A stretch of DNA of 32,000 nt, taken from assembly GCF_000022265.1 (NCBI RefSeq), contig NC_011979.1, forward strand, positions 960,001 to 992,000, written 5' to 3'. This document shows, piece by piece, positions 4,248-27,300 of the stretch (position 1 is the first letter of the stretch; every line of letters starts with the position of its first letter). The notes beneath the pieces were generated by a model. That model did not search any database, was not told where the DNA came from, and saw only the letters and a program-made list of their open reading frames with translations. The stretch is from Geotalea daltonii FRC-32. GTDB taxonomy: Bacteria; Desulfobacterota; Desulfuromonadia; Geobacterales; Geobacteraceae. The translations under genes and the position numbers were made by a program.

Positions 4248-7200
4248 TCAGATTGCTACCTGATTGCCGGTCAGAGTGTTGTTGTTTTCGTTTGCTTCCG
4301 TCACATAATTGAAGGTGTCGACGATGACTTTGTAGGTGTAGGTACCCGGCGCGATATTTGAAGGAATGGTGACCGGGATGGCGAGTGACTGGGTGGCGCC
4401 GGCTTGGAGGCTGCTCACATAGGTGGAGCCGATCTGGATGTTGGCGCCGGAGCTGCTGGTAATATACGCATGGACGTAGAAGGAGGATGCGTCACCTGAT
4501 CCGGTGTTGGCAATCGTCGTATTCAGCGAGAAGGACTGGCCAATACTTGCCGTCGCCGGGCCGGACACTGCGGTTGCCGAGAGATCGGAGCCGCTCACCG
4601 CGACCTGGTTGCCGGTCAGGGTGTTGTTGTTTTCGTTTGCTTCCACCACATAATTGAAGGTGTCGACAACGATTTTGTAGGTATATGTGCCATGGGCGGT
4701 AGTCGAAGGAATGTTGCCCGTGATGGCGAGTGACTGGGTGGCGCCGGCTGCAAGGCCGTTCACATAGGTGGAACCGATCTGGACATTGGCGCCGGAGCCG
4801 CTGGTAATGTACGCATGGACATAGAAGGAGGAGGCGTCACCCGATCCGGTGTTGGCGATGGATGCGTTGACGGTTACCGGTTTCCCGGTGTTTGCCGTCG
4901 CCGGGCCGGACACTGCGGTTGCCGTGAGATCGGAGCCGCTCACCGCGACCTGGTTGCCGGTCAGGGTGTTGTTGTTTTCGTTTGCTTCCGTCACATAATT
5001 GAAGGTGTCGACAACGATCTTGTAGGTATATGTGCCATGGGCGGTAGTCGAAGGAATGTTGCCCGTGATGGCGAGTGACTGGGTGGCGCCGGCTGCAAGG
5101 CCGTTCACATAGGTGGAACCGATCTGGACATTGGCGCCGGAGCCGCTGGTAATGTACGCATGGACATAGAAGGAGGAGGCGTCACCCGATCCGGTGTTGG
5201 CGATGGAGGCGTTGACGGTTACCGGTTTCCCGGTGTTTGCCGTCGCCGGGCCGGACACTGCGGTTGCCGTGAGATCGGAGCCGCTCACCGCGACCTGGTT
5301 GCCGGTCAGGGTGTTGTTGTTTTCGTTTGCTTCCGTCACATAATTGAAGGTGTCGACAACGATCTTGTAGGTATATGTGCCATGGGCGGTAGTCGAAGGA
5401 ATGTTGCCCGTGATGGCGAGTGACTGGGTGGCGCCGGCTGCAAGGCCGTTCACATAGGTGGAACCGATCTGGACATTGGCGCCGGAGCCGCTGGTAATGT
5501 ACGCATGGACGTAGAAGGAGGAGGCGTCACCCGATCCGGTGTTGGCGATGGAGGCGTTGACGGTTACCGGTTTCCCGGTGTTTGCCGTCGCCGGGCCGGA
5601 CACTGCGGTTGCCGTGAGATCGGAGCCGCTCACCGCGACCTGGTTGCCGTTCAGGGTGTTGTTGTTTTCAATTGCTTCCACCACGTAATTGAAGGTATCG
5701 ACAACGATTTTGTAGGTATATGTGCCATGGGCGGTAGTCGAAGGAATGTTGCCCGTGATGGCGAGTGACTGGGTGGCGCCGGCTGCAAGGCCGTTCACAT
5801 AGGTGGAACCGATCTGGACATTGGCGCCGGAGCCGCTGGTAATGTACGCATGGACGTAGAAGGAGGAGGCGTCACCCGATCCGGTGTTGGCGATGGAGGC
5901 GTTGACGGTTACCGGTTTCCCGGTGTTTGCCGTCGCCGGGCCGGACACTGCGGTTGCCGTGAGATCGGAGCCGCTCACCGCGACCTGGTTGCCGTTCAGG
6001 GTGTTGTTGTTTTCAATTGCTTCCACCACGTAATTGAAGGTGTCGACAACGATCTTGTAGGTATACGTGCCATGGGCGGTAGTCGAAGGAATGTTGCCCG
6101 TGATGGCGAGTGACTGGGTGGCGCCGGCTGCAAGGCCGTTCACATAGGTGGAACCGATCTGGACGTTGGCGCCGGAGCTGCTGGAAATATACGCATGGAC
6201 GTAGAAGGATGAGGCGGCTGTCGGTCCGATATTGGTAACGGTGGTGTTGACGGTTACCGTCTTGCCGGTGTTTGCGGTAGCAGGGCCGGATATTGCGGTA
6301 GCAGTCAGATCCACAGTGCCGTTGATCTGTATTGTCCGGGTTTTTGCTGCCTCCCGGAAGCCTGCCTTGTCAATGGCATAGTAGGTGATGGTGTGGGTGC
6401 CGTTGGTCGTCAGCTTTGTAGATGCCAGCGGGCCTGCAATGACAACTTCTGCTCCGTCGTTGATGCTGTAGTGAATTTCCTTAACGCCCGAGCCGGCATC
6501 GGCTCCGCTTAAGTTCACGGTCACAACGGTCGTATATGAGCCGTTACTACCCATGGTTCCCTGCAATGTGGCGGTCGTAACCGGCGGGGCTTTGTCGATG
6601 TTGACCGTAACGCTATTTACCGGCTCCGCTGCTCCATCCTTGTCTACGGCATAAAAAGTTACCGAATGGCTTCCATCGGCCGTTAAAATGAATGAGGCGG
6701 GTGAAGTCGGCTGAGTTGCTTCGCCGCCTTTATCGATCTCGTACCTGATCTCCTGCAGAGCGGCAGGAAGATCGTCTGTGATGTCGACGGTAACATCTGA
6801 AGAATACCAGCCGTTGCCGACAGCTGTTCCTGAGAGCGTTGCCACGGTTGAGGAATGGGTTTTTTCGAAAGCTCCCAGGTCCGGAGCAGCGCCATAGAAG
6901 GCGTAACCGAGGTCCAGGCCTTTTTCCAGGCAAGGGGAGAATGCCTGCAGGTGAAAATCTGCAGCTGTTGGGCTGACGAACAGGGGATCCTGGGATATGT
7001 CGTTGGCACCCGCTGCCACATTGCTGTAGTTGGTGCCGTTGTTCCAGACGTTGTTGTAATCGCTGGTGACCTTGCCGTAATCATAGGTGTACTTGCCGAT
7101 GCCGACACTATTGTTGGCAAAGATGTTGTTCTTCAATACCTTCACGGAGCCGGACCTGTCGTCTCCGGAAGCAAAGGCGGTACCGTTGTTGTAGAATACC

Positions 7201-8969
7201 GAGTTGTAGATATACTCGGCGCCGATCAGATCGCCGCTGGTAACGGCGGCGCCGGGGTTGTTGTAGAACCGGCAGCGGATGATGTAGTTGGAGCCCTGGG
7301 TGTGGGCCCACCAGATGACAGTGCCCTTATTGTTGTAAAATTCGCAGTCTTCGAAGGTGAGACCCTTGTCAGCATAGTAGGGCCTGATCACATAGCCGGA
7401 CGGGGCAGTATGGTTGTAGAACCTGGTGTTTTTGAAGTGTTGCCCGCCGAATCCTATTCCGGTGCCATGCCCCTCCATAGCCATGGCGTTGTCGTGGATG
7501 TCGCAATCCTCGATCCTGTTGTCATAGGAGTCGAAATAGAAGGCGAACTGGGTGTAGTTGCGGATCTCAAGGTTGACAAAATCCACATTGCCGGCGGCTT
7601 CTCCAGTGAAAATAGCCGTTTGCAGAGTGTTCTGCCCGTCAAGGACGGCTTTTCCGACACCCTTAATGATGATTCTCTTGTCGGGGGTGGAAGGGGAATA
7701 AATGGTCAGCGCCTCGTTATAGACCCCTTCCTGTACCTCAATGATGTCCCCTGCCGTTGCGGAATTTGCCGCATGCTGGATGGTCCTGAAGGCGCCCAGG
7801 GCGCTGTTCTCCAAACCGCTGTTGGCGTCGTTTCCATCGGTCCTTACATAGTAGATTTTATTGACGTAGGTCTCGTAAGTTCCCATATCCGGGGCGGTGC
7901 CGTTGTATGGATAGCCCAGATCGATTCCGGCATTGACGGCAGGAGAGAATGGCTTCACATGGAAATCGGCTGTTTTGGGGCTGACGAACATGGGATCCTG
8001 GGATATGTCGTGGGCGCCCGCTGCCACATTGCTGTAATTGGTATCGTTGTTCCAGACATCGTTATGGTCGCTGGTGACCGTGCCGTAATCGTAGGTGTAC
8101 TTGGCTATGCCGTAACGATTGTTGGCAAAGATATTGTTTTTCAATACTTTTACGGAACCATACCTGTCGTCTCCGGAACCAAAGGCGGTACCGTTGTTGT
8201 AGAATACGGAGTTATAGACATACGCGGTGCCGATCAGGTCACCGCTGGTGACGGCAGCGCCGGGGTTGTTGTAGAACCGGCAACGGATTATGTAGTTGGA
8301 GCCCTGGGTGTGGGCCCACCAGATGACGGTGCCCTTGTTGTCGTGGAAATCGCAGTCTTCGAAGGTGAGACCCTTTGCCGCATAGTAGGGCCTGATTACA
8401 TAGCCGGACGGTGCCGAATGGTTATAGAACTTGGTGTTTTTGAATACTTGCCCGCCAAATCCGATTCCTGTGCCATGTCCCTCCATAACCATGGCGTTGT
8501 CGTGGATGTCGCAATTCTCGATCCTGTTGTCGTATGAGTCGAAATAGAAGGCGAACTGGGTGTAGTTGCGGATCTCAAGATTGACGAAATCCACATTGCC
8601 GGCGGTTTCTCCAGTGAAAACGGCCGTTTGCAGGGCGTTCTGTCCGTCGAGAACTACTTTCCCCATACCCTTGAAGGTGATTCTTTTATCGGGAGTGGCT
8701 GCGGAATTAATAACCAATGCCTCGTTGTAGACCCCTTCCTGTACCTCGATAACGTCCCCTGCCGTTGCTGAATTTGCCGCATGCTGGATGGTCCTGAAGG
8801 CTCCCGATGGGCTGTTCTCTAATCCGGTATTGATGTCATTCCCATCGGTTCTGACATAGAAAGACGCAGCTGATGCTTCCCCGGACCCAATAGTTAAACA
8901 GACAAAAACGAACAGGCTCAACAATAACAAATACTTCTGGTGCAAGAACTGGAAGATTCCACTCTTCAT
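4248..8969 (-). CDS. giant secreted repeat protein: signal peptide, 2 parallel beta-helix (pectate-lyase-fold/DUF1565-like) modules, 2 Ig-like domains, 6 CARDB domains
   Basis: Continuous ORF of about 4.7 kb. ATG 8969 sits 7 nt after AAGGAG; the listed start 8975 is a GTG only 1 nt from that SD. Hydrophobic signal LLLLSLFVFVCLTIGSGEASA. The motif YVRTDGND..G....P..TIQHAANSATAGD..EV.EGVY occurs twice. The GWYSSDVTV.. and SYTTVVTVNLSGADAGSGVKEIHY segments look Ig-like. DLTATAVSGPATANTGKPVTV...NNNT units match the CARDB pattern. No C-terminal sorting signal or anchor recognised. Confidence 0.85.
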   Translation of the reverse strand: MKSGIFQFLHQKYLLLLSLFVFVCLTIGSGEASAASFYVRTDGNDINTGLENSPSGAFRTIQHAANSATAGDVIEVQEGVYNEALVINSAATPDKRITFKGMGKVVLDGQNALQTAVFTGETAGNVDFVNLEIRNYTQFAFYFDSYDNRIENCDIHDNAMVMEGHGTGIGFGGQVFKNTKFYNHSAPSGYVIRPYYAAKGLTFEDCDFHDNKGTVIWWAHTQGSNYIIRCRFYNNPGAAVTSGDLIGTAYVYNSVFYNNGTAFGSGDDRYGSVKVLKNNIFANNRYGIAKYTYDYGTVTSDHNDVWNNDTNYSNVAAGAHDISQDPMFVSPKTADFHVKPFSPAVNAGIDLGYPYNGTAPDMGTYETYVNKIYYVRTDGNDANSGLENSALGAFRTIQHAANSATAGDIIEVQEGVYNEALTIYSPSTPDKRIIIKGVGKAVLDGQNTLQTAIFTGEAAGNVDFVNLEIRNYTQFAFYFDSYDNRIEDCDIHDNAMAMEGHGTGIGFGGQHFKNTRFYNHTAPSGYVIRPYYADKGLTFEDCEFYNNKGTVIWWAHTQGSNYIIRCRFYNNPGAAVTSGDLIGAEYIYNSVFYNNGTAFASGDDRSGSVKVLKNNIFANNSVGIGKYTYDYGKVTSDYNNVWNNGTNYSNVAAGANDISQDPLFVSPTAADFHLQAFSPCLEKGLDLGYAFYGAAPDLGAFEKTHSSTVATLSGTAVGNGWYSSDVTVDITDDLPAALQEIRYEIDKGGEATQPTSPASFILTADGSHSVTFYAVDKDGAAEPVNSVTVNIDKAPPVTTATLQGTMGSNGSYTTVVTVNLSGADAGSGVKEIHYSINDGAEVVIAGPLASTKLTTNGTHTITYYAIDKAGFREAAKTRTIQINGTVDLTATAISGPATANTGKTVTVNTTVTNIGPTAASSFYVHAYISSSSGANVQIGSTYVNGLAAGATQSLAITGNIPSTTAHGTYTYKIVVDTFNYVVEAIENNNTLNGNQVAVSGSDLTATAVSGPATANTGKPVTVNASIANTGSGDASSFYVHAYITSGSGANVQIGSTYVNGLAAGATQSLAITGNIPSTTAHGTYTYKIVVDTFNYVVEAIENNNTLNGNQVAVSGSDLTATAVSGPATANTGKPVTVNASIANTGSGDASSFYVHAYITSGSGANVQIGSTYVNGLAAGATQSLAITGNIPSTTAHGTYTYKIVVDTFNYVTEANENNNTLTGNQVAVSGSDLTATAVSGPATANTGKPVTVNASIANTGSGDASSFYVHAYITSGSGANVQIGSTYVNGLAAGATQSLAITGNIPSTTAHGTYTYKIVVDTFNYVTEANENNNTLTGNQVAVSGSDLTATAVSGPATANTGKPVTVNASIANTGSGDASSFYVHAYITSGSGANVQIGSTYVNGLAAGATQSLAITGNIPSTTAHGTYTYKIVVDTFNYVVEANENNNTLTGNQVAVSGSDLSATAVSGPATASIGQSFSLNTTIANTGSGDASSFYVHAYITSSSGANIQIGSTYVSSLQAGATQSLAIPVTIPSNIAPGTYTYKVIVDTFNYVTEANENNNTLTGNQVAI
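4251..6311 (-). repeat. six tandem 345-bp (115-codon) coding repeats (CARDB units R6..R1)
   Basis: Exact 345-bp periodicity is visible in the sequence, for example CTGGTAATGTACGCATGGAC at 4801, 5146, 5491 and 5836. It is echoed by the shadow ORFs at 4815/5160/5505/5850. The internal units are nearly identical by eye; the edge units are diverged. Confidence 0.9.
6849..8864 (-). repeat. two tandem ~1008-bp (336-codon) coding repeats (beta-helix modules)
   Basis: Protein residues about 38-373 and 374-709 align without gaps and are identical at most positions (FYVRTDGND.. versus YYVRTDGND.., through ..APDMGTYE versus ..APDLGAFE). Confidence 0.85.
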
Positions 8970-9134
8970 ACTCACTCTCCTTACATTTTTGATAGCGGCT
9001 CATAAAAAGCACATTACTCCGTGCAGGATCTCAGTGCTGAGCCAGGGATATTTCCAGAAAAAAATTACGGTAATGATTAGGCCAGAAGAGGAACAGGGAT
9101 GGTAAATGATTTTAGTAGATATTAATTACCGCGC

Positions 9135-24585: not shown

Positions 24586-24907
24586 AATATTGCACCAGGG
24601 AGAGGGACTGTTTTTCACCCCAGCTTACGGTCAGGATCAGTTTCTGCAATAGCGGGATTTCCGTCGGCATCATTTCCGCCTGCCATGCTATTTCGGGATG
24701 GTCGGGGCTGAAAGTCCCCTTTTTTTCCTGAAGGTCCATGAATCCGGGTTCTTCCAGCTTTGCCCGCGCCAGGAGCATGGCAGCCGTCTCTTCTTTATCC
24801 CTGCCGACCACAGACAGGTGGTAGTTGAAGGAAGTGATGACGGTGAGGATCACTCCTGCCATGATGGCCAAGGCAATCATGATTTCCAGCAAGGTAAAAC
24901 CCTTCAC
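24572..24907 (-). CDS. gspI: type II secretion minor pseudopilin I
   Basis: The GTG start overlaps the gspH stop (GTGA) and gives MKG|FTLLEIMIALAI. 111 aa. Confidence 0.75.
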   Translation of the reverse strand: MKGFTLLEIMIALAIMAGVILTVITSFNYHLSVVGRDKEETAAMLLARAKLEEPGFMDLQEKKGTFSPDHPEIAWQAEMMPTEIPLLQKLILTVSWGEKQSLSLVQYYAKK

Positions 24908-25497
24908 CGTGCTGCCTCCTGGTATCCTTTTTCCACCTTGACCTTGCCGCTGCTCGGGTAGGCTGTCACGGTAAAATGCCCATTCTTGCCGTCCTTCAGA
25001 TGGATGATCATGAAATCCTGCAGACCGCCAGGGCCGAAACCGATGATAACCTCCCCTTCGCTGATCTTTCCCGACTGGGGAATGGTAACATCCTCGATGA
25101 TGATTCCTTCGGCTATGGGCCTCCGGCTGAGAAAAGGATCGTCTGCAGCTGTTTCTTCCCCTGATGGAGACAACTGTCTTACCCGGGTGGTACTGTCGGT
25201 GATATTCAGGTGCAGGCGGTAACCGGTTTTTGTCGTCGCAGCCCGATCGCCGATGAATCTTATGGCCGAGGCTAGTGAGCGGGCAGAGTCTCTAAGTTTA
25301 GCCGATTCGGTGGATGGCAGTCTGGGCAGCACTATCCCCGCGATCAGGGAGAGAATGGCGATGACCACCATCAGTTCCATCAGGGTGAAACCGCCCTGAA
25401 AACCAGTTCGAGGTTCGAGGTTCGAGGTTCGAGGTTCAACCAAGGTTCGAGGTTCGATGTTCGAAGTTCTATGTTGAAAAACTCTAGAGATTTCCAT
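24904..25497 (-). CDS. gspH: type II secretion pseudopilin H with an atypically long leader; start uncertain
   Basis: Mature part begins G|FTLMELMVVIAILSLIAG (F codon at 25389-25387). The only upstream ATG is at 25497, giving a 36-aa leader. Alternatives are TTG 25443 (18-aa leader) and GTG 25554, which overlaps the gspG stop (55 aa). No convincing SD for any of them. Confidence 0.7.
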   Translation of the reverse strand: MEISRVFQHRTSNIEPRTLVEPRTSNLEPRTGFQGGFTLMELMVVIAILSLIAGIVLPRLPSTESAKLRDSARSLASAIRFIGDRAATTKTGYRLHLNITDSTTRVRQLSPSGEETAADDPFLSRRPIAEGIIIEDVTIPQSGKISEGEVIIGFGPGGLQDFMIIHLKDGKNGHFTVTAYPSSGKVKVEKGYQEAAR

Positions 25498-25546
25498 GTT
25501 TGCTTGTTGCTTACAACGTCGAACGCCGAACACCGAACTTCGAACG
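25405..25546. repeat. two opposed arrays of GTTCGNN heptamers separated by a 48-nt spacer
   Basis: On the + strand, 4 perfect GTTCGAG units at 25406-25433 are followed by degenerate units to 25469. Inverted units GTCGAAC GCCGAAC ACCGAAC TTCGAAC lie at 25518-25546. The spacer carries the palindrome CTCTAGAG (25482-25489). Confidence 0.85.
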
Positions 25547-25550
25547 ATTT

Positions 25551-25991
25551 TCACCTTATATCCCAGCTGTTGATGTCGGCACTTTTGCCTTCGCCGCCCC
25601 GTGCGCCGTCGGCACCAAGGGATGAGAGATCATAATCGCTGTGCTCGCCCGGTGACAGATAGACATAATCATTTTCCCACGGGTCCTTCGGTAGATTCTT
25701 GCTATCCAGATAACCTTCCGCCTTGTAATTTTTCGGAATCTGGCCGGTGACCGGCTTGGTGATCAGCGCTGCCAGACCCTGTTCGGTGGAGGGATAGACG
25801 CCGTTGTCCAACTTGTAGAGCTTGAGGGCGCTTTCAATGTTCCTGATCTGCACCTTGGCATCGGCGATCTTGGCGTCATCGGAACGCCCCATGATTTTGG
25901 GGGCGACCAGTGCAGCAAGCGCTGCCAGGATCATGACCACCACCATGATTTCGATCAAGGTAAAGCCGCGATTGTTTCGAATACCATTCAT
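25551..25991 (-). CDS. gspG: type II secretion major pseudopilin G
   Basis: MNGIRNNRG|FTLIEIMVVVMILAALAALVAP, then LYKLDNGVYPSTEQGL, DPWENDYVY and SLGADG, a classical GspG pattern. SD AAAGGAG upstream. Confidence 0.9.
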   Translation of the reverse strand: MNGIRNNRGFTLIEIMVVVMILAALAALVAPKIMGRSDDAKIADAKVQIRNIESALKLYKLDNGVYPSTEQGLAALITKPVTGQIPKNYKAEGYLDSKNLPKDPWENDYVYLSPGEHSDYDLSSLGADGARGGEGKSADINSWDIR

Positions 25992-26040
25992 GTATGACTC
26001 CTTTTCATTCTTTAATTTCTCTTGGAACGCTCAAAAGAGG

Positions 26041-26073
26041 CCAGGTGCAAGGCGCCCGAACGCAGCAGATGGG
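26041..26073. repeat. 33-nt core copy of the 4053-4168 element, in inverted orientation
   Basis: The reverse complement reads CCCATCTGCTGCGTTCGGGCGCCTTGCACCTGG. Its last 20 nt are identical to 4135-4154. Its first 15 nt match 4066-4080 at 14 of 15 positions. Confidence 0.5.
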
Positions 26074-26088
26074 TGCTTGCAGCGTCCA

Positions 26089-27300
26089 TCATTTGATCAG
26101 CTGGTTGAGCTGGAATATGGGCAACAGCACTGCCAGCACCACCGTGCCGACGCAAAGCCCCATGCCCAGTATCAGCAGTGGCTCCAGCAGGGCCATGGAC
26201 CGGGTGATGGAGGCCTCGAATTCCTTTTCGAAGGCGTTACCGGCCTTGATCAGCATCGCTTCCAGTTCTCCCCCTTTTTCGCCGACGGCAATCATGTGTA
26301 CCATGAGCGGCGGAAAGAGTGGGCTTTTCCGTAGCGCCACCGACAGGCTTCCCCCCTGGATCAGTTCCTCGCTTGCTTCGGCAAGGAAGAGGCGGTATTC
26401 GCGGTTGACGATGGCCTCGCCGGTGATTTCGATGGCTTTGATCACCGGGACGCCGCTGGCCAGCAGAAGGCCTAGCACCTTGGCGAAGCGGGAAAGGATC
26501 AGCCGCTGCCAGAGGGGGCCGGCCAGGGGAAGCTTGAGCATCAGCCGGTCTCTTTTCCGCCGGAACGCCTCGTTGCCTTTGGCCCGTTTCAGTATGAACG
26601 CGGCGGCAACGGCGATGATGATCAGCAACCACCATCCCTGGCGCAACAGACTGCTTACCTTGATGAGGATGACGGTTATCAGGGGGAGAGCGGCCTTGCT
26701 CTGCTCGAAAACGGTGACGATCTTCGGCACGACAAAGGCGAGGAGGAAGAGCATGACACCGGTGCCGACCACAACCATGAGGATCGGGTAAGCCAGCGAG
26801 GTGACTATTTTGCTGCGTACGGCATTCTGGTCTTCCAGAAACTCGGCCAATCTCTCCAGCACCACTTCAAGGGCGCCGCTGGCTTCCCCGGCTGAAACCA
26901 TGCCGATATAGCTGTCGCTGAATATCTGCGGTTCGGCGGCGAGGGCTTTGGCCAGGCTGGTCCCCTCCGCAAGGCGGTCGCGCACCCGGCCAAGCATTGT
27001 GCGCAGTTCCCCGGGCCGCTCCTGGTCGTGAAGTGTTGCGATGGCTTCATAGACCGGTACCGATGAACCGAGCAGGGTTGCCAGTCGCCGCGTCATCAGC
27101 GACAGTTCGGGCAATCCCACTTTTTTCCTGAAGGACATGGGTCCGCGTCCGCCGACCACCTCATCTGCCGGGGCTATCTGTCTGGCATAGAGGCCGTCTT
27201 TCTTCAGACGCTGCCTGACCTCGTTGACGTTAGCCGCTTCGATGGTGCCGGCGACTTCGTTGCCACCGGCCTTGAAGGCACTATAGCGGAAGGTCGGCAT
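26089..27300 (-). CDS. gspF: type II secretion inner-membrane platform protein F
   Basis: 403 aa starting MPTFRYSAFKAGGNEVAGTIEA. Two T2SSF-type repeats and three TM segments. It overlaps gspE by 20 nt. Confidence 0.9.
   Translation of the reverse strand: MPTFRYSAFKAGGNEVAGTIEAANVNEVRQRLKKDGLYARQIAPADEVVGGRGPMSFRKKVGLPELSLMTRRLATLLGSSVPVYEAIATLHDQERPGELRTMLGRVRDRLAEGTSLAKALAAEPQIFSDSYIGMVSAGEASGALEVVLERLAEFLEDQNAVRSKIVTSLAYPILMVVVGTGVMLFLLAFVVPKIVTVFEQSKAALPLITVILIKVSSLLRQGWWLLIIIAVAAAFILKRAKGNEAFRRKRDRLMLKLPLAGPLWQRLILSRFAKVLGLLLASGVPVIKAIEITGEAIVNREYRLFLAEASEELIQGGSLSVALRKSPLFPPLMVHMIAVGEKGGELEAMLIKAGNAFEKEFEASITRSMALLEPLLILGMGLCVGTVVLAVLLPIFQLNQLIK

Follow-up and report, generated by a model that had tools for sequence, protein, structure and literature searches.

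Type II secretion needs far more of the major pseudopilin GspG than of the minor pseudopilins, and how one operon delivers this ratio is a question rarely addressed. It is raised by a junction in the gsp operon of Geotalea daltonii FRC-32, where two opposed arrays of tandem GTTCGNN heptamers lie between gspG and gspH. The locus was analyzed within a stretch of 32,000 nucleotides (NC_011979.1, positions 960,001 to 992,000), hereafter called the window (32 kb); all coordinates are positions within it, and the gsp operon is on its minus strand. Sequence comparison indicates that a base-paired element, conserved in a clade of relatives, extends from the gspG stop codon to the leader of gspH, a gene whose initiation region is itself weak. 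We propose that this element acts as a protective or occluding intercistronic RNA hairpin setting the GspG:GspH ratio, a role that our analysis leads us to hold with about even confidence.

The heptamer arrays and the predicted junction hairpin

By using Tandem Repeats Finder, we delimited on the plus strand an array of period 7 and 9.6 copies, with consensus GTTCGAG, at 25406-25469, and an inverted array of period 7 and 4.6 copies at 25515-25546. Read directly from the sequence, the former begins with four perfect GTTCGAG units (25406-25433), followed by GTTCAAC, CAAG, GTTCGAG, GTTCGAT, GTTCGAA, GTTCTAT, and GTTGAAA, and ends at 25479; the inverted units at 25518-25545 read GTCGAAC, GCCGAAC, ACCGAAC, and TTCGAAC. 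The opposed arrays described in the initial annotation were thus found at the positions and with the repeat units given there. Its other structural statements also hold: the palindrome in the spacer, CTCTAGAG, is located at 25482-25489, the gspF-gspG spacer measures 97 nt, and the other in-operon junctions overlap as claimed. The 14-mer GTTCGAGGTTCGAG, allowing up to two mismatches, has six matches in the window versus 0.26 expected, a number reached in none of 100 shuffles, and the two-unit pattern GTTCGNNGTTCG, allowing one mismatch, has 10 matches versus 1.8 expected; all matches to both are confined to the gspG-gspH locus. The inverted-repeat arms at 25445-25479 and 25511-25545 are 35 nt each and 80% complementary.

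The significance of folding was assessed by comparing the minimum free energy (MFE) with that of dinucleotide shuffles. For the RNA transcribed from the minus strand over 25380-25560, the MFE is -60.2 kcal/mol, versus -44.2 kcal/mol (standard deviation 4.1) for the shuffles, which corresponds to z = -3.9, and none of 200 shuffles folded as low. A second fold of the same junction gave -58.2 kcal/mol, z ranging from -3.9 to -4.3 across the two folds. The predicted structure is a hairpin of about 30 bp between the two arrays on the minus-strand mRNA, whose stem is a succession of 6-bp helices with a single mismatch per heptamer. The 97-nt gspF-gspG spacer is not unusually structured (z = 0.22). 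A scan of 24800-26300 against Rfam 15, with E-values up to 10, returned only chance-level matches (E of at least 0.47, far under the gathering scores).

Read along the mRNA, the hairpin starts at an A-rich stem base, AAAAUC (25545-25550, minus strand), which adjoins the gspG stop codon and pairs in the MFE structure with the U-run at 25398-25405; in the G. toluenoxydans counterpart, GGACC still pairs with GGUU, as read directly from the alignment. The 5' arm (25511-25546) consists of four good heptamers and a degenerate one, GUUCGAA GUUCGGU GUUCGGC GUUCGAC GUUGUAA, and leads into an inner loop (25480-25510) containing a conserved ATG (25495-25497) and the palindrome mentioned above. This arm has two 3' partners of near-equal energy. 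The proximal block (25445-25479, -60.2 kcal/mol) reads UUUCAAC AUAGAAC UUCGAAC AUCGAAC CUCGAAC and lies within the gspH leader frame, whereas the distal block (25406-25433, -58.2 kcal/mol) is made of the four perfect CUCGAAC units and encodes the leader segment EPRTSNLEPRT. Between them, a linker (25434-25444) holds an in-frame TTG (25441-25443) and a degenerate unit, GUUGAAC. According to the sequence and the MFE fold, the stem base is closed by the U-run CUGGUUUU (25398-25405), which lies in the T-G-F codons of the leader.

The genes on either side were identified from the list of open reading frames (ORFs) and from family models. The major pseudopilin gene gspG occupies 25551-25991 on the minus strand, with its TGA stop codon at 25553-25551, and its product matches NCBIfam TIGR01710 (GspG) with 173.7 bits for a cut-off of 88.85. 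The next gene, gspH, is taken to encode a minor pseudopilin; read from the putative start codon ATG 25497, it extends over 24904-25497 and encodes 197 aa, about 36 of which form the leader. The alignment with 20 homologues places the prepilin cleavage site G/F at 25387-25392 (GGT 25392-25390, TTC 25389-25387), so that cleavage at 25390/25389 leaves a mature N-terminus FTLMELMVV. The prepilin N-terminal domain TIGR02532 starts at residue 34 of the ATG-started ORF (29.6 bits for a cut-off of 16.3), and TIGR01708 (GspH) is the best NCBIfam family match of the product, with 45 bits, below its 80-bit cut-off. The synteny gspC-D-E-F-G-[H]-I-J-K-L holds, homologues of the gene downstream of gspG are named GspH by JGI, and gspI comes next after gspH with a 4-nt overlap.

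Conservation and compensatory change among relatives

G. daltonii GspH is 98% identical to that of Geotalea toluenoxydans and 55-83% identical to about 20 further homologues, mostly metagenomic, whose predicted N-termini carry RTSNLEPRT-like strings that are translated heptamers. A metagenome scan with the GspH alignment yielded only about five close relatives. Junction DNA was compared for G. toluenoxydans (L512/L513), Geotalea sp. SG265 (L207), and eight uncultured relatives, relative P0019 being left out; L210, L128, L129, and the Geomonas proteins P0022-P0026 lack arrays. Arrays are present in L512, L207, L208, L209, L127, L213, L214, L218, L211, and L216, at GspH identities of 55-98%, and these relatives share one layout: the 5' arm, of four to five heptamers, begins 5-10 nt past the gspG stop codon (5 nt in the window); a loop of 40-60 nt follows, usually with an ATG; and the 3' arm, of about four heptamers, ends some 12 nt ahead of the GFTL codons. 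In nine of these 10 relatives the junction folds with z between -2.8 and -5.6. Among the array-less sequences, the junctions of L128, L129, and L210 (GspH identity 58-71%) have z around 0 and are no more stable than their shuffles. In L209, the whole module of 5' arm, loop, and 3' arm is duplicated in tandem (L209 1459-1684), the junction measuring 224 nt and the predicted "GspH" 223 aa.

The sequence of the units differs among these relatives. Their fifth base is a G, paired with C, in the window, L512, L208, and L209, and a U, paired with A, in L207, L127, L213, and L214, where GUUCG/CGAAC has become GUUCU/AGAAC in several units at once. In L216, GAGCGAG pairs with CUCGCUC, and in L218, L211, and L216 a purine-rich (CGAGGNN)n 5' arm pairs with the CCUCG phase, not the CGAAC phase, of a (CCUCGAA)n 3' arm. 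With the 3' arm anchored on the GFTL codons and each sequence read in its own fold, 26 of the 58 3'-arm positions have at least two Watson-Crick pair types. In a mini-hairpin alignment of nine sequences, which are related to one another, 76.6% of the cells are paired versus 21-40% when the partner is slid, and both sides have changed in 14 of the 28 pairs versus 6.6 ± 1.7 in shuffles, of which none in 500 reaches 14. On this evidence, pairing appears to be conserved through compensatory change, not through sequence. The initial annotation had proposed that the arrays pair, heptamer against heptamer, in the mRNA of the minus strand, and this is supported by the folding score, by the occurrence of the element at the same site in relatives, and by compensatory substitutions. 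Of the roles suggested there, protection of the gspG message and/or occlusion of gspH initiation would fit best.

Divergence between the two closest species is also low at the paired sites. Between the window and G. toluenoxydans, 2 of 65 sites differ in the paired cores, versus 26 of 93 in the non-core junction (Fisher p = 3e-5) and 25 of 147 at gspG third codon positions (Fisher p = 0.0035). Together, the comparisons indicate that the hairpin element was inherited vertically in a clade comprising Geotalea and related Geobacteraceae, and that its repeat units drifted, expanded, and, in one lineage, were duplicated, while compensatory change kept the pairing.

The variation of the units bears on the suggestion, made in the initial annotation, that the arrays are iterated binding sites for a regulator; a nucleoid protein binding the DNA may be considered as well. 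Such sites have been proposed in Geobacter metallireducens, whose class 1-3 elements are paired tandem hepta- or octanucleotide sites on opposite strands, with IHF/HU-type proteins as guessed ligands (Aklujkar et al. 2009, PMC2700814). The two bacteria belong to the same family, and the architecture agrees: the G. metallireducens sites also comprise two opposed arrays of three to five tandem 7-8 nt units at variable spacing and are in some cases located within operons (proB-proA). It has in common with these "global regulator sites" the tandem 7-nt units, the opposite-strand arrays, and the variable distance (Aklujkar et al. PMC2700814), and the wobble test presented below favors RNA no more than DNA. 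On the other hand, the G. metallireducens units are GTTGCTYN, TCTCCGTS, and MTYCTGA, present in 16-48 copies per genome, whereas the Geotalea units are GTTCGNN, the element is single-copy in the DNA examined and occupies one orthologous site, and its covariation points to base pairing. The unit sequence is not conserved (GTTCG, GTTCT, GAGCG/CGAGG) although complementarity is, which is the opposite of what characterizes a sequence-specific protein site; with a period of 7 bp, one site and the next would face different sides of the helix; and the arrays lie inside an operon with no convincing adjoining promoter. Arrays of binding sites are therefore a most improbable explanation.

Unit number bears in the same way on a third suggestion of the initial annotation, a slipped-strand contingency tract in which gain or loss of one 7-nt unit would shift the gspH frame. 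The minor pseudopilins, and with them secretion, would then be switched on or off in a subpopulation. Seven-base-pair repeats upstream of the Haemophilus influenzae hmw adhesin genes are heptanucleotide contingency repeats, and the resemblance is real in that tandem 7-nt units, not a multiple of three, would alter the expression of a gene for a surface structure if one unit were added or removed. Here, four perfect units lie downstream of every candidate start, where a one-unit change would frameshift gspH. Moreover, all five Logan short-read contigs with this gspG end once the first fully periodic 30-mer is complete, as a longer or variable array, or copies elsewhere, would be expected to cause in a k=31 assembly graph. 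Against this, the unit number is the same in the window, L121, L123, L512, and L513, five independent complete assemblies from two species-level lineages, and the sole length change between species is a 3-nt, in-frame indel. In addition, four perfect units are short for an efficient slippage tract, most relatives have imperfect units, and, unlike at hmw, the array is accompanied by a complementary inverted one. We thus consider phase variation of this kind very unlikely.

The short-read contigs in question, L122, L124, L125, L126, and one further Logan contig, end 143-145 nt past the gspG stop codon, within the perfect (CTCGAAC)4 block at window positions 25406-25410, and encode an identical GspG. 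The metagenomes with contigs interrupted in this way are SRR9436587/8, SRR29904083/5, and SRR9007495. In ENA and JGI assemblies, the sequence continues across the block, which has four units. The Logan contig ends could mean that arrays are longer or variable, or that copies occur elsewhere, in those samples, which leaves a small doubt.

The gspH start and leader peptide

The GspH reading frame is open across the whole junction, so that the 3' arrays are more than a non-coding spacer, a point on which the initial annotation needs correction. Four in-frame start candidates exist: GTG 25554, GTG 25533, ATG 25497, and TTG 25443. The ATG, described as the only one upstream of the cleavage site, is indeed the sole in-frame ATG, but the two GTG and the TTG must be counted too. 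No start codon occurs between the 3' arm and the cleavage site, either in the window or in any of the relatives compared, and the 3' arm is therefore predicted to be translated as part of the GspH leader. In five relatives, an ATG stands directly ahead of the 3' arm and opens a 17-aa leader of the form MK-x-RTSNIEPRT-xxxx-G/F. The window and G. toluenoxydans have a conserved ATG in the loop, and the single 3-nt indel between them keeps its frame. The TTG at 25441-25443 is the counterpart of the start annotated in G. toluenoxydans, where protein P0001 (179 aa) begins with MVEPRT. We rejected GTG 25554, which would give a GTGA overlap with the gspG stop codon, because it is replaced by CTG in G. 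toluenoxydans.

In the UAG-type arrays of relatives, UAG occurs in the two other frames only, the in-frame unit having UUG or UCG instead, and in L207 the partner unit of the 5' arm bears a compensating A (GUUCAAA) for the changed in-frame unit. In-frame UAG thus seems to be avoided. Because UAG is kept out of frame and the partner changes in compensation, the 3' arm appears to be both translated and paired. The likely translation of the 3' arrays, the position of the start directly ahead of the 3' arm in most relatives, and the apparent avoidance of in-frame UAG had escaped the initial annotation.

The GspH leader measures 17-36 aa in the clade, versus about 9 aa for GspG and about 3 aa for GspI in the same operon. 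We considered the possibility that a conserved leader peptide is the selected feature and rejected it, as the peptide varies (RTSNLEPRT, RTLNIEHRT, ASNLVPRS, RTSDIERRT, and others) while the pairing is kept. The apparent leader motif is rather a by-product of the repeat, because a 7-nt repeat encodes one and the same cyclic heptapeptide in whichever frame it is read.

The initiation signals of the operon genes were compared through the energy of the Shine-Dalgarno duplex. It reaches -10.3 kcal/mol for gspF, -8.2 for gspG, which has AAGGAG 7 nt ahead of its ATG, and -10.3 for gspI. The gspH start candidates of the window lack a Shine-Dalgarno sequence, their energies ranging from -0.6 to +0.1 kcal/mol (-0.6 at ATG 25497), and gspH starts are weak by this measure in most relatives too.

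Predicted gspH starts disagree within the clade (25443 or 25497 in the window; P0001, P0006, P0007, and L121). Predicted products of 155-158 aa begin within the mature part, at MELMVV, the version of 179 aa has its start within the array, and ORFs of 216-223 aa begin at or ahead of the 5' arm. Public annotations of the GspH N-terminus in this clade are unreliable.

Possible roles of the hairpin

In the role that we propose, the opposed arrays would pair within the polycistronic gsp mRNA as the two sides of a long hairpin between cistrons, and this hairpin would uncouple the abundant output of GspG from that of the minor pseudopilins GspH-K, which are scarce. By protecting the 3' end of the gspG segment, it would shield this segment from 3'-to-5' exonucleases after cleavage downstream. 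The start-proximal codons of gspH, which lack a Shine-Dalgarno sequence, would be buried, so that few ribosomes would initiate there, and low ribosome traffic on gspH would in turn allow the hairpin to persist. Because prepilin peptidase removes the leader, the leader peptide is nearly free to vary and its nucleotides are free for pairing. Slippage most simply accounts for the construction from repeats: such a stem can pair in several registers and can grow or shrink, although the gspH frame survives only when the change amounts to three units (21 nt). Translational coupling, in which the ribosome terminating on gspG would melt the stem, was also considered and found weak, since a ribosome at the gspG stop codon opens only the base of the stem, far from the gspH start.

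Several observations weigh against this proposal. The gspH start varies in its place with respect to the hairpin: in L211 and L216 it precedes both arms, in the window, L512, and L208 it falls within the loop, and in the remaining relatives it is found where the loop meets the 3' arm. The part of the model that concerns start occlusion is weakened thereby; occlusion probably contributes, but a feature whose placement varies in this manner cannot be the conserved core. The same operon evidently operates with no such hairpin in the close relatives that lack arrays (L210, L128, L129, and the Geomonas species of P0022-P0026), so that the hairpin would be at most modulatory. In the covariation analysis, the registers of the 5' arm were taken from the MFE fold of each sequence, which favors the observed structure over the slid controls, and concerted evolution of the repeats could equally produce the low divergence of the cores and mimic constraint. 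Finally, 13 G-U cells were counted versus 20 A-C cells, so that the wobble test does not pick the acting strand, and the antisense RNA of the junction, from a G/U-rich strand, folds equally well or better. As neither the G-U and A-C counts nor the sense and antisense energies discriminate, either strand may be the one that acts, and the pairing could be of importance in the DNA itself or on the opposite strand.

A neutral explanation has to be considered as well, in which a tandem-repeat quasi-palindrome arose once in the spacer and is harmless in a leader that is cleaved off, its complementarity and low divergence being kept by slippage and by homogenization between units and arms, not by an RNA function. 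The initial annotation had made a related suggestion, a selfish insertion resembling a repetitive extragenic palindromic (REP) element and tolerated thanks to the cleaved leader. Geobacteraceae are rich in intergenic direct-repeat and palindromic multicopy sequences, including opposed tandem arrays of 7-8 nt units (PMC2700814, PMC2996986). Moreover, two metagenome-assembled genomes (MAGs) of Geobacteraceae (L011 and L029) carry arrays of this unit at unrelated places, opposed GTTCGNN arrays with very long hairpins are found in many phyla, relatives without arrays function, and the wobble pairs have no strand asymmetry. In the gspF-gspG spacer of G. toluenoxydans (L512/L513 9327-9382), there is a 56-nt insertion, absent from the window (around 26040), with the palindrome AACGTAGCGCGGCTACGTT. 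This palindrome resembles the multicopy family GRCGTAGCGCTGCTACGCC known from G. metallireducens and G. uraniireducens (PMC2700814), which suggests gain and loss of a REP-like element in the adjoining spacer, the heptamer hairpin being retained.

Likenesses to REP elements and bacterial interspersed mosaic elements extend to the heptamer element itself, a stable hairpin between operon genes that could stabilize the upstream mRNA, with similar arrays at L011 and L029. It differs from them by occupying one vertically conserved site, by having one coding arm, and by being made of tandem repeats rather than of a single palindromic unit. The location of the 3' arm in a cleaved leader agrees with the notion of a tolerated insertion, whereas an element that is orthologous, positionally fixed down to about 55% GspH identity, and single-copy in the 32-kb window is less in keeping with a selfish one. 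Furthermore, the arms are not simple reverse complements, as every seventh position is mismatched; in three relatives the 5' arm is complementary in the other phase (CGAGG versus CCUCG), which arm-to-arm conversion would not yield; and pairing is kept even where a unit was changed to avoid an in-frame stop codon (L207). Neutral maintenance thus seems to us rather unlikely, though it deserves serious attention.

Another alternative is that the hairpin is a leaky intrinsic terminator, or attenuator, stopping a fraction of RNA polymerases after gspG, with the result that fewer transcripts reach gspH-N. Beyond the stem there is a U-run in the window and G. toluenoxydans (UGGUUUUC), L216 and L211 (UGUUUUUCC), and L209 (UUUC); that of the window pairs with the A-run just past the gspG stop codon, as in many terminators. 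Terminator-like hairpins after the genes of major pilus subunits lower the expression of minor subunits in the pap and K99 operons. However, intrinsic terminators have a short G+C-rich stem with a loop of 3-8 nt, followed within 0-2 nt by at least five U in 8 nt, and a consensus scan found no terminator at 25390-25560. Loops of 30-80 nt are far above those of efficient terminators, and a U-run is absent immediately past the long stem in L207, L127, L213, L214, and L218. U-tracts are also missing from the protective hairpins that Dar and Sorek described (PMC5927463). Attenuation as the general explanation is hence improbable; leaky termination may nevertheless add to protection or occlusion in some lineages with a U-run.

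The hairpin that we propose to set the GspG:GspH ratio is of a known kind, the malE-malF type, here in an unusual, repeat-built and leader-coding form. The protective 3' hairpins found genome-wide in Escherichia coli, which cause differential decay within operons, are conserved, have no U-tract, and work in concert with ribosome density, which differs between genes and is low downstream (Dar and Sorek 2018, PMC5927463). As in hairpins of the malE-malF type, a very stable hairpin stands right after a presumably more highly expressed upstream gene, has no canonical U-tract, is conserved with fewer substitutions at paired sites, and precedes a gene that is probably poorly translated. Unlike in that type, the stem is made of opposed tandem heptamer arrays with a mismatch every seventh position, a large loop holds the start codon, and the embedded arm encodes a cleaved prepilin leader, not mature protein. 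The malE-malF type is further defined by an RNA 3' end just past the hairpin and by a longer half-life and a higher level of the upstream segment. A second precedent is the Clostridium cellulosome, in which, through selective RNA processing and stabilization, stem-loops 3' of highly expressed genes of the C. cellulolyticum cip-cel operon set subunit stoichiometry (Xu et al. 2015, PMC4423207). There, as at the gspG-gspH junction, an intergenic stem-loop follows the gene of the most abundant subunit in an operon for a heteromultimeric machine, in the present case one of pseudopilins. The organism and the machine are different, and processing sites were mapped and stem-loops tested in cip-cel, whereas everything beyond the structure is a matter of inference in Geotalea.

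Opposed arrays of this kind are not peculiar to Geotalea. Arrays of four GTTCGNN units occur at 120 or more loci in many phyla (185,579 genomes scanned), and an opposed partner array lies within 250 nt in 15 of the 120 matches listed, the GTTCG array preceding the CGAAC array in 13 cases versus two in the other order. Among the genome matches listed, the resulting hairpins reach about 70 bp, with energies down to -161 kcal/mol. In viral contigs, control cores of the same composition were about as frequent as GTTCG (116 matches for GTTCG, at least 120 for GTCTG, and 57 for TGCGT), which indicates that the 120 or more genome matches reflect a general abundance of heptamer arrays; we accordingly dropped the idea that the GTTCG core is special as a tRNA T-loop-like, LexA-box-like, or TTCGAA palindrome sequence. 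The opposed arrangement, on the other hand, looks somewhat enriched for the GTTCG core, being found in 15 of 120 genome matches listed and 7 of 116 viral ones versus 2 of 120 and 1 of 57 for the controls, which come from viral contigs only; we regard this as a lead. A general link to prepilin genes was rejected, as a prepilin motif lies within 400 nt in only one of the 120 matches listed. A peptide search with six LEPRTSN units returned 17 matches, none of them from Geotalea, and was uninformative on dispersed copies.

Opposed arrays were seen in intergenic positions at L004 4189-4390, L043 1857-1952, L076 7372-7550, L092 700-900, L105 3900-4005, L011 1527-1590, and other loci, in Thermoanaerobaculia, Chthoniobacteraceae, Acidobacteriota, Verrucomicrobiae, Planctomycetota, and Geobacteraceae, and also in Chloroflexota. 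In the Geobacteraceae MAG L011, a hairpin of GTTCGNN-unit arrays separates convergent genes. In L029 (5865-5925), (CTCGAAC)4 stands between two co-directional genes, which resemble, judging from their translations only, those of a 2-hydroxyacyl-CoA dehydratase and an activator ATPase; this array is read into the N-terminus of the downstream ORF and adjoins a different, GGTGAAT-like heptamer array. A repeat of another type occurs elsewhere in the window, where a 345-bp unit is present six times with 94% identity (4258-6311) within a 1575-aa minus-strand ORF (4248-8975), corresponding to a protein with 115-aa repeat domains.

It is conceivable, though on present evidence unlikely, that opposed short tandem-repeat arrays are a general, cross-phylum way to build long hairpins of tunable length, of which the Geotalea copy was domesticated as an evolvable rheostat. 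The number of units and their register, with two 3' blocks competing for one 5' arm, would then set the minor pseudopilin relative to GspG, and the cleaved prepilin leader would be a protein-neutral place for RNA structure within a coding region.

For those who work with these genomes, the practical consequence is that gspH start calls disagree (158-, 179-, and 216-aa versions) and that assemblies break in the repeat. If the junction hairpin does act as a protective or occluding structure, it would provide a concrete and easily mutated RNA element for setting the ratio of pseudopilins. A lengthened N-terminal leader that is cleaved off would then serve as free sequence space for RNA structure, which would explain why GspH has a leader of 17-36 aa when GspI and GspG, encoded in the same operon, have leaders of 3-9 aa. 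It would also give a possible function to one member of the enigmatic tandem-repeat arrays found in the intergenic regions of Geobacteraceae.

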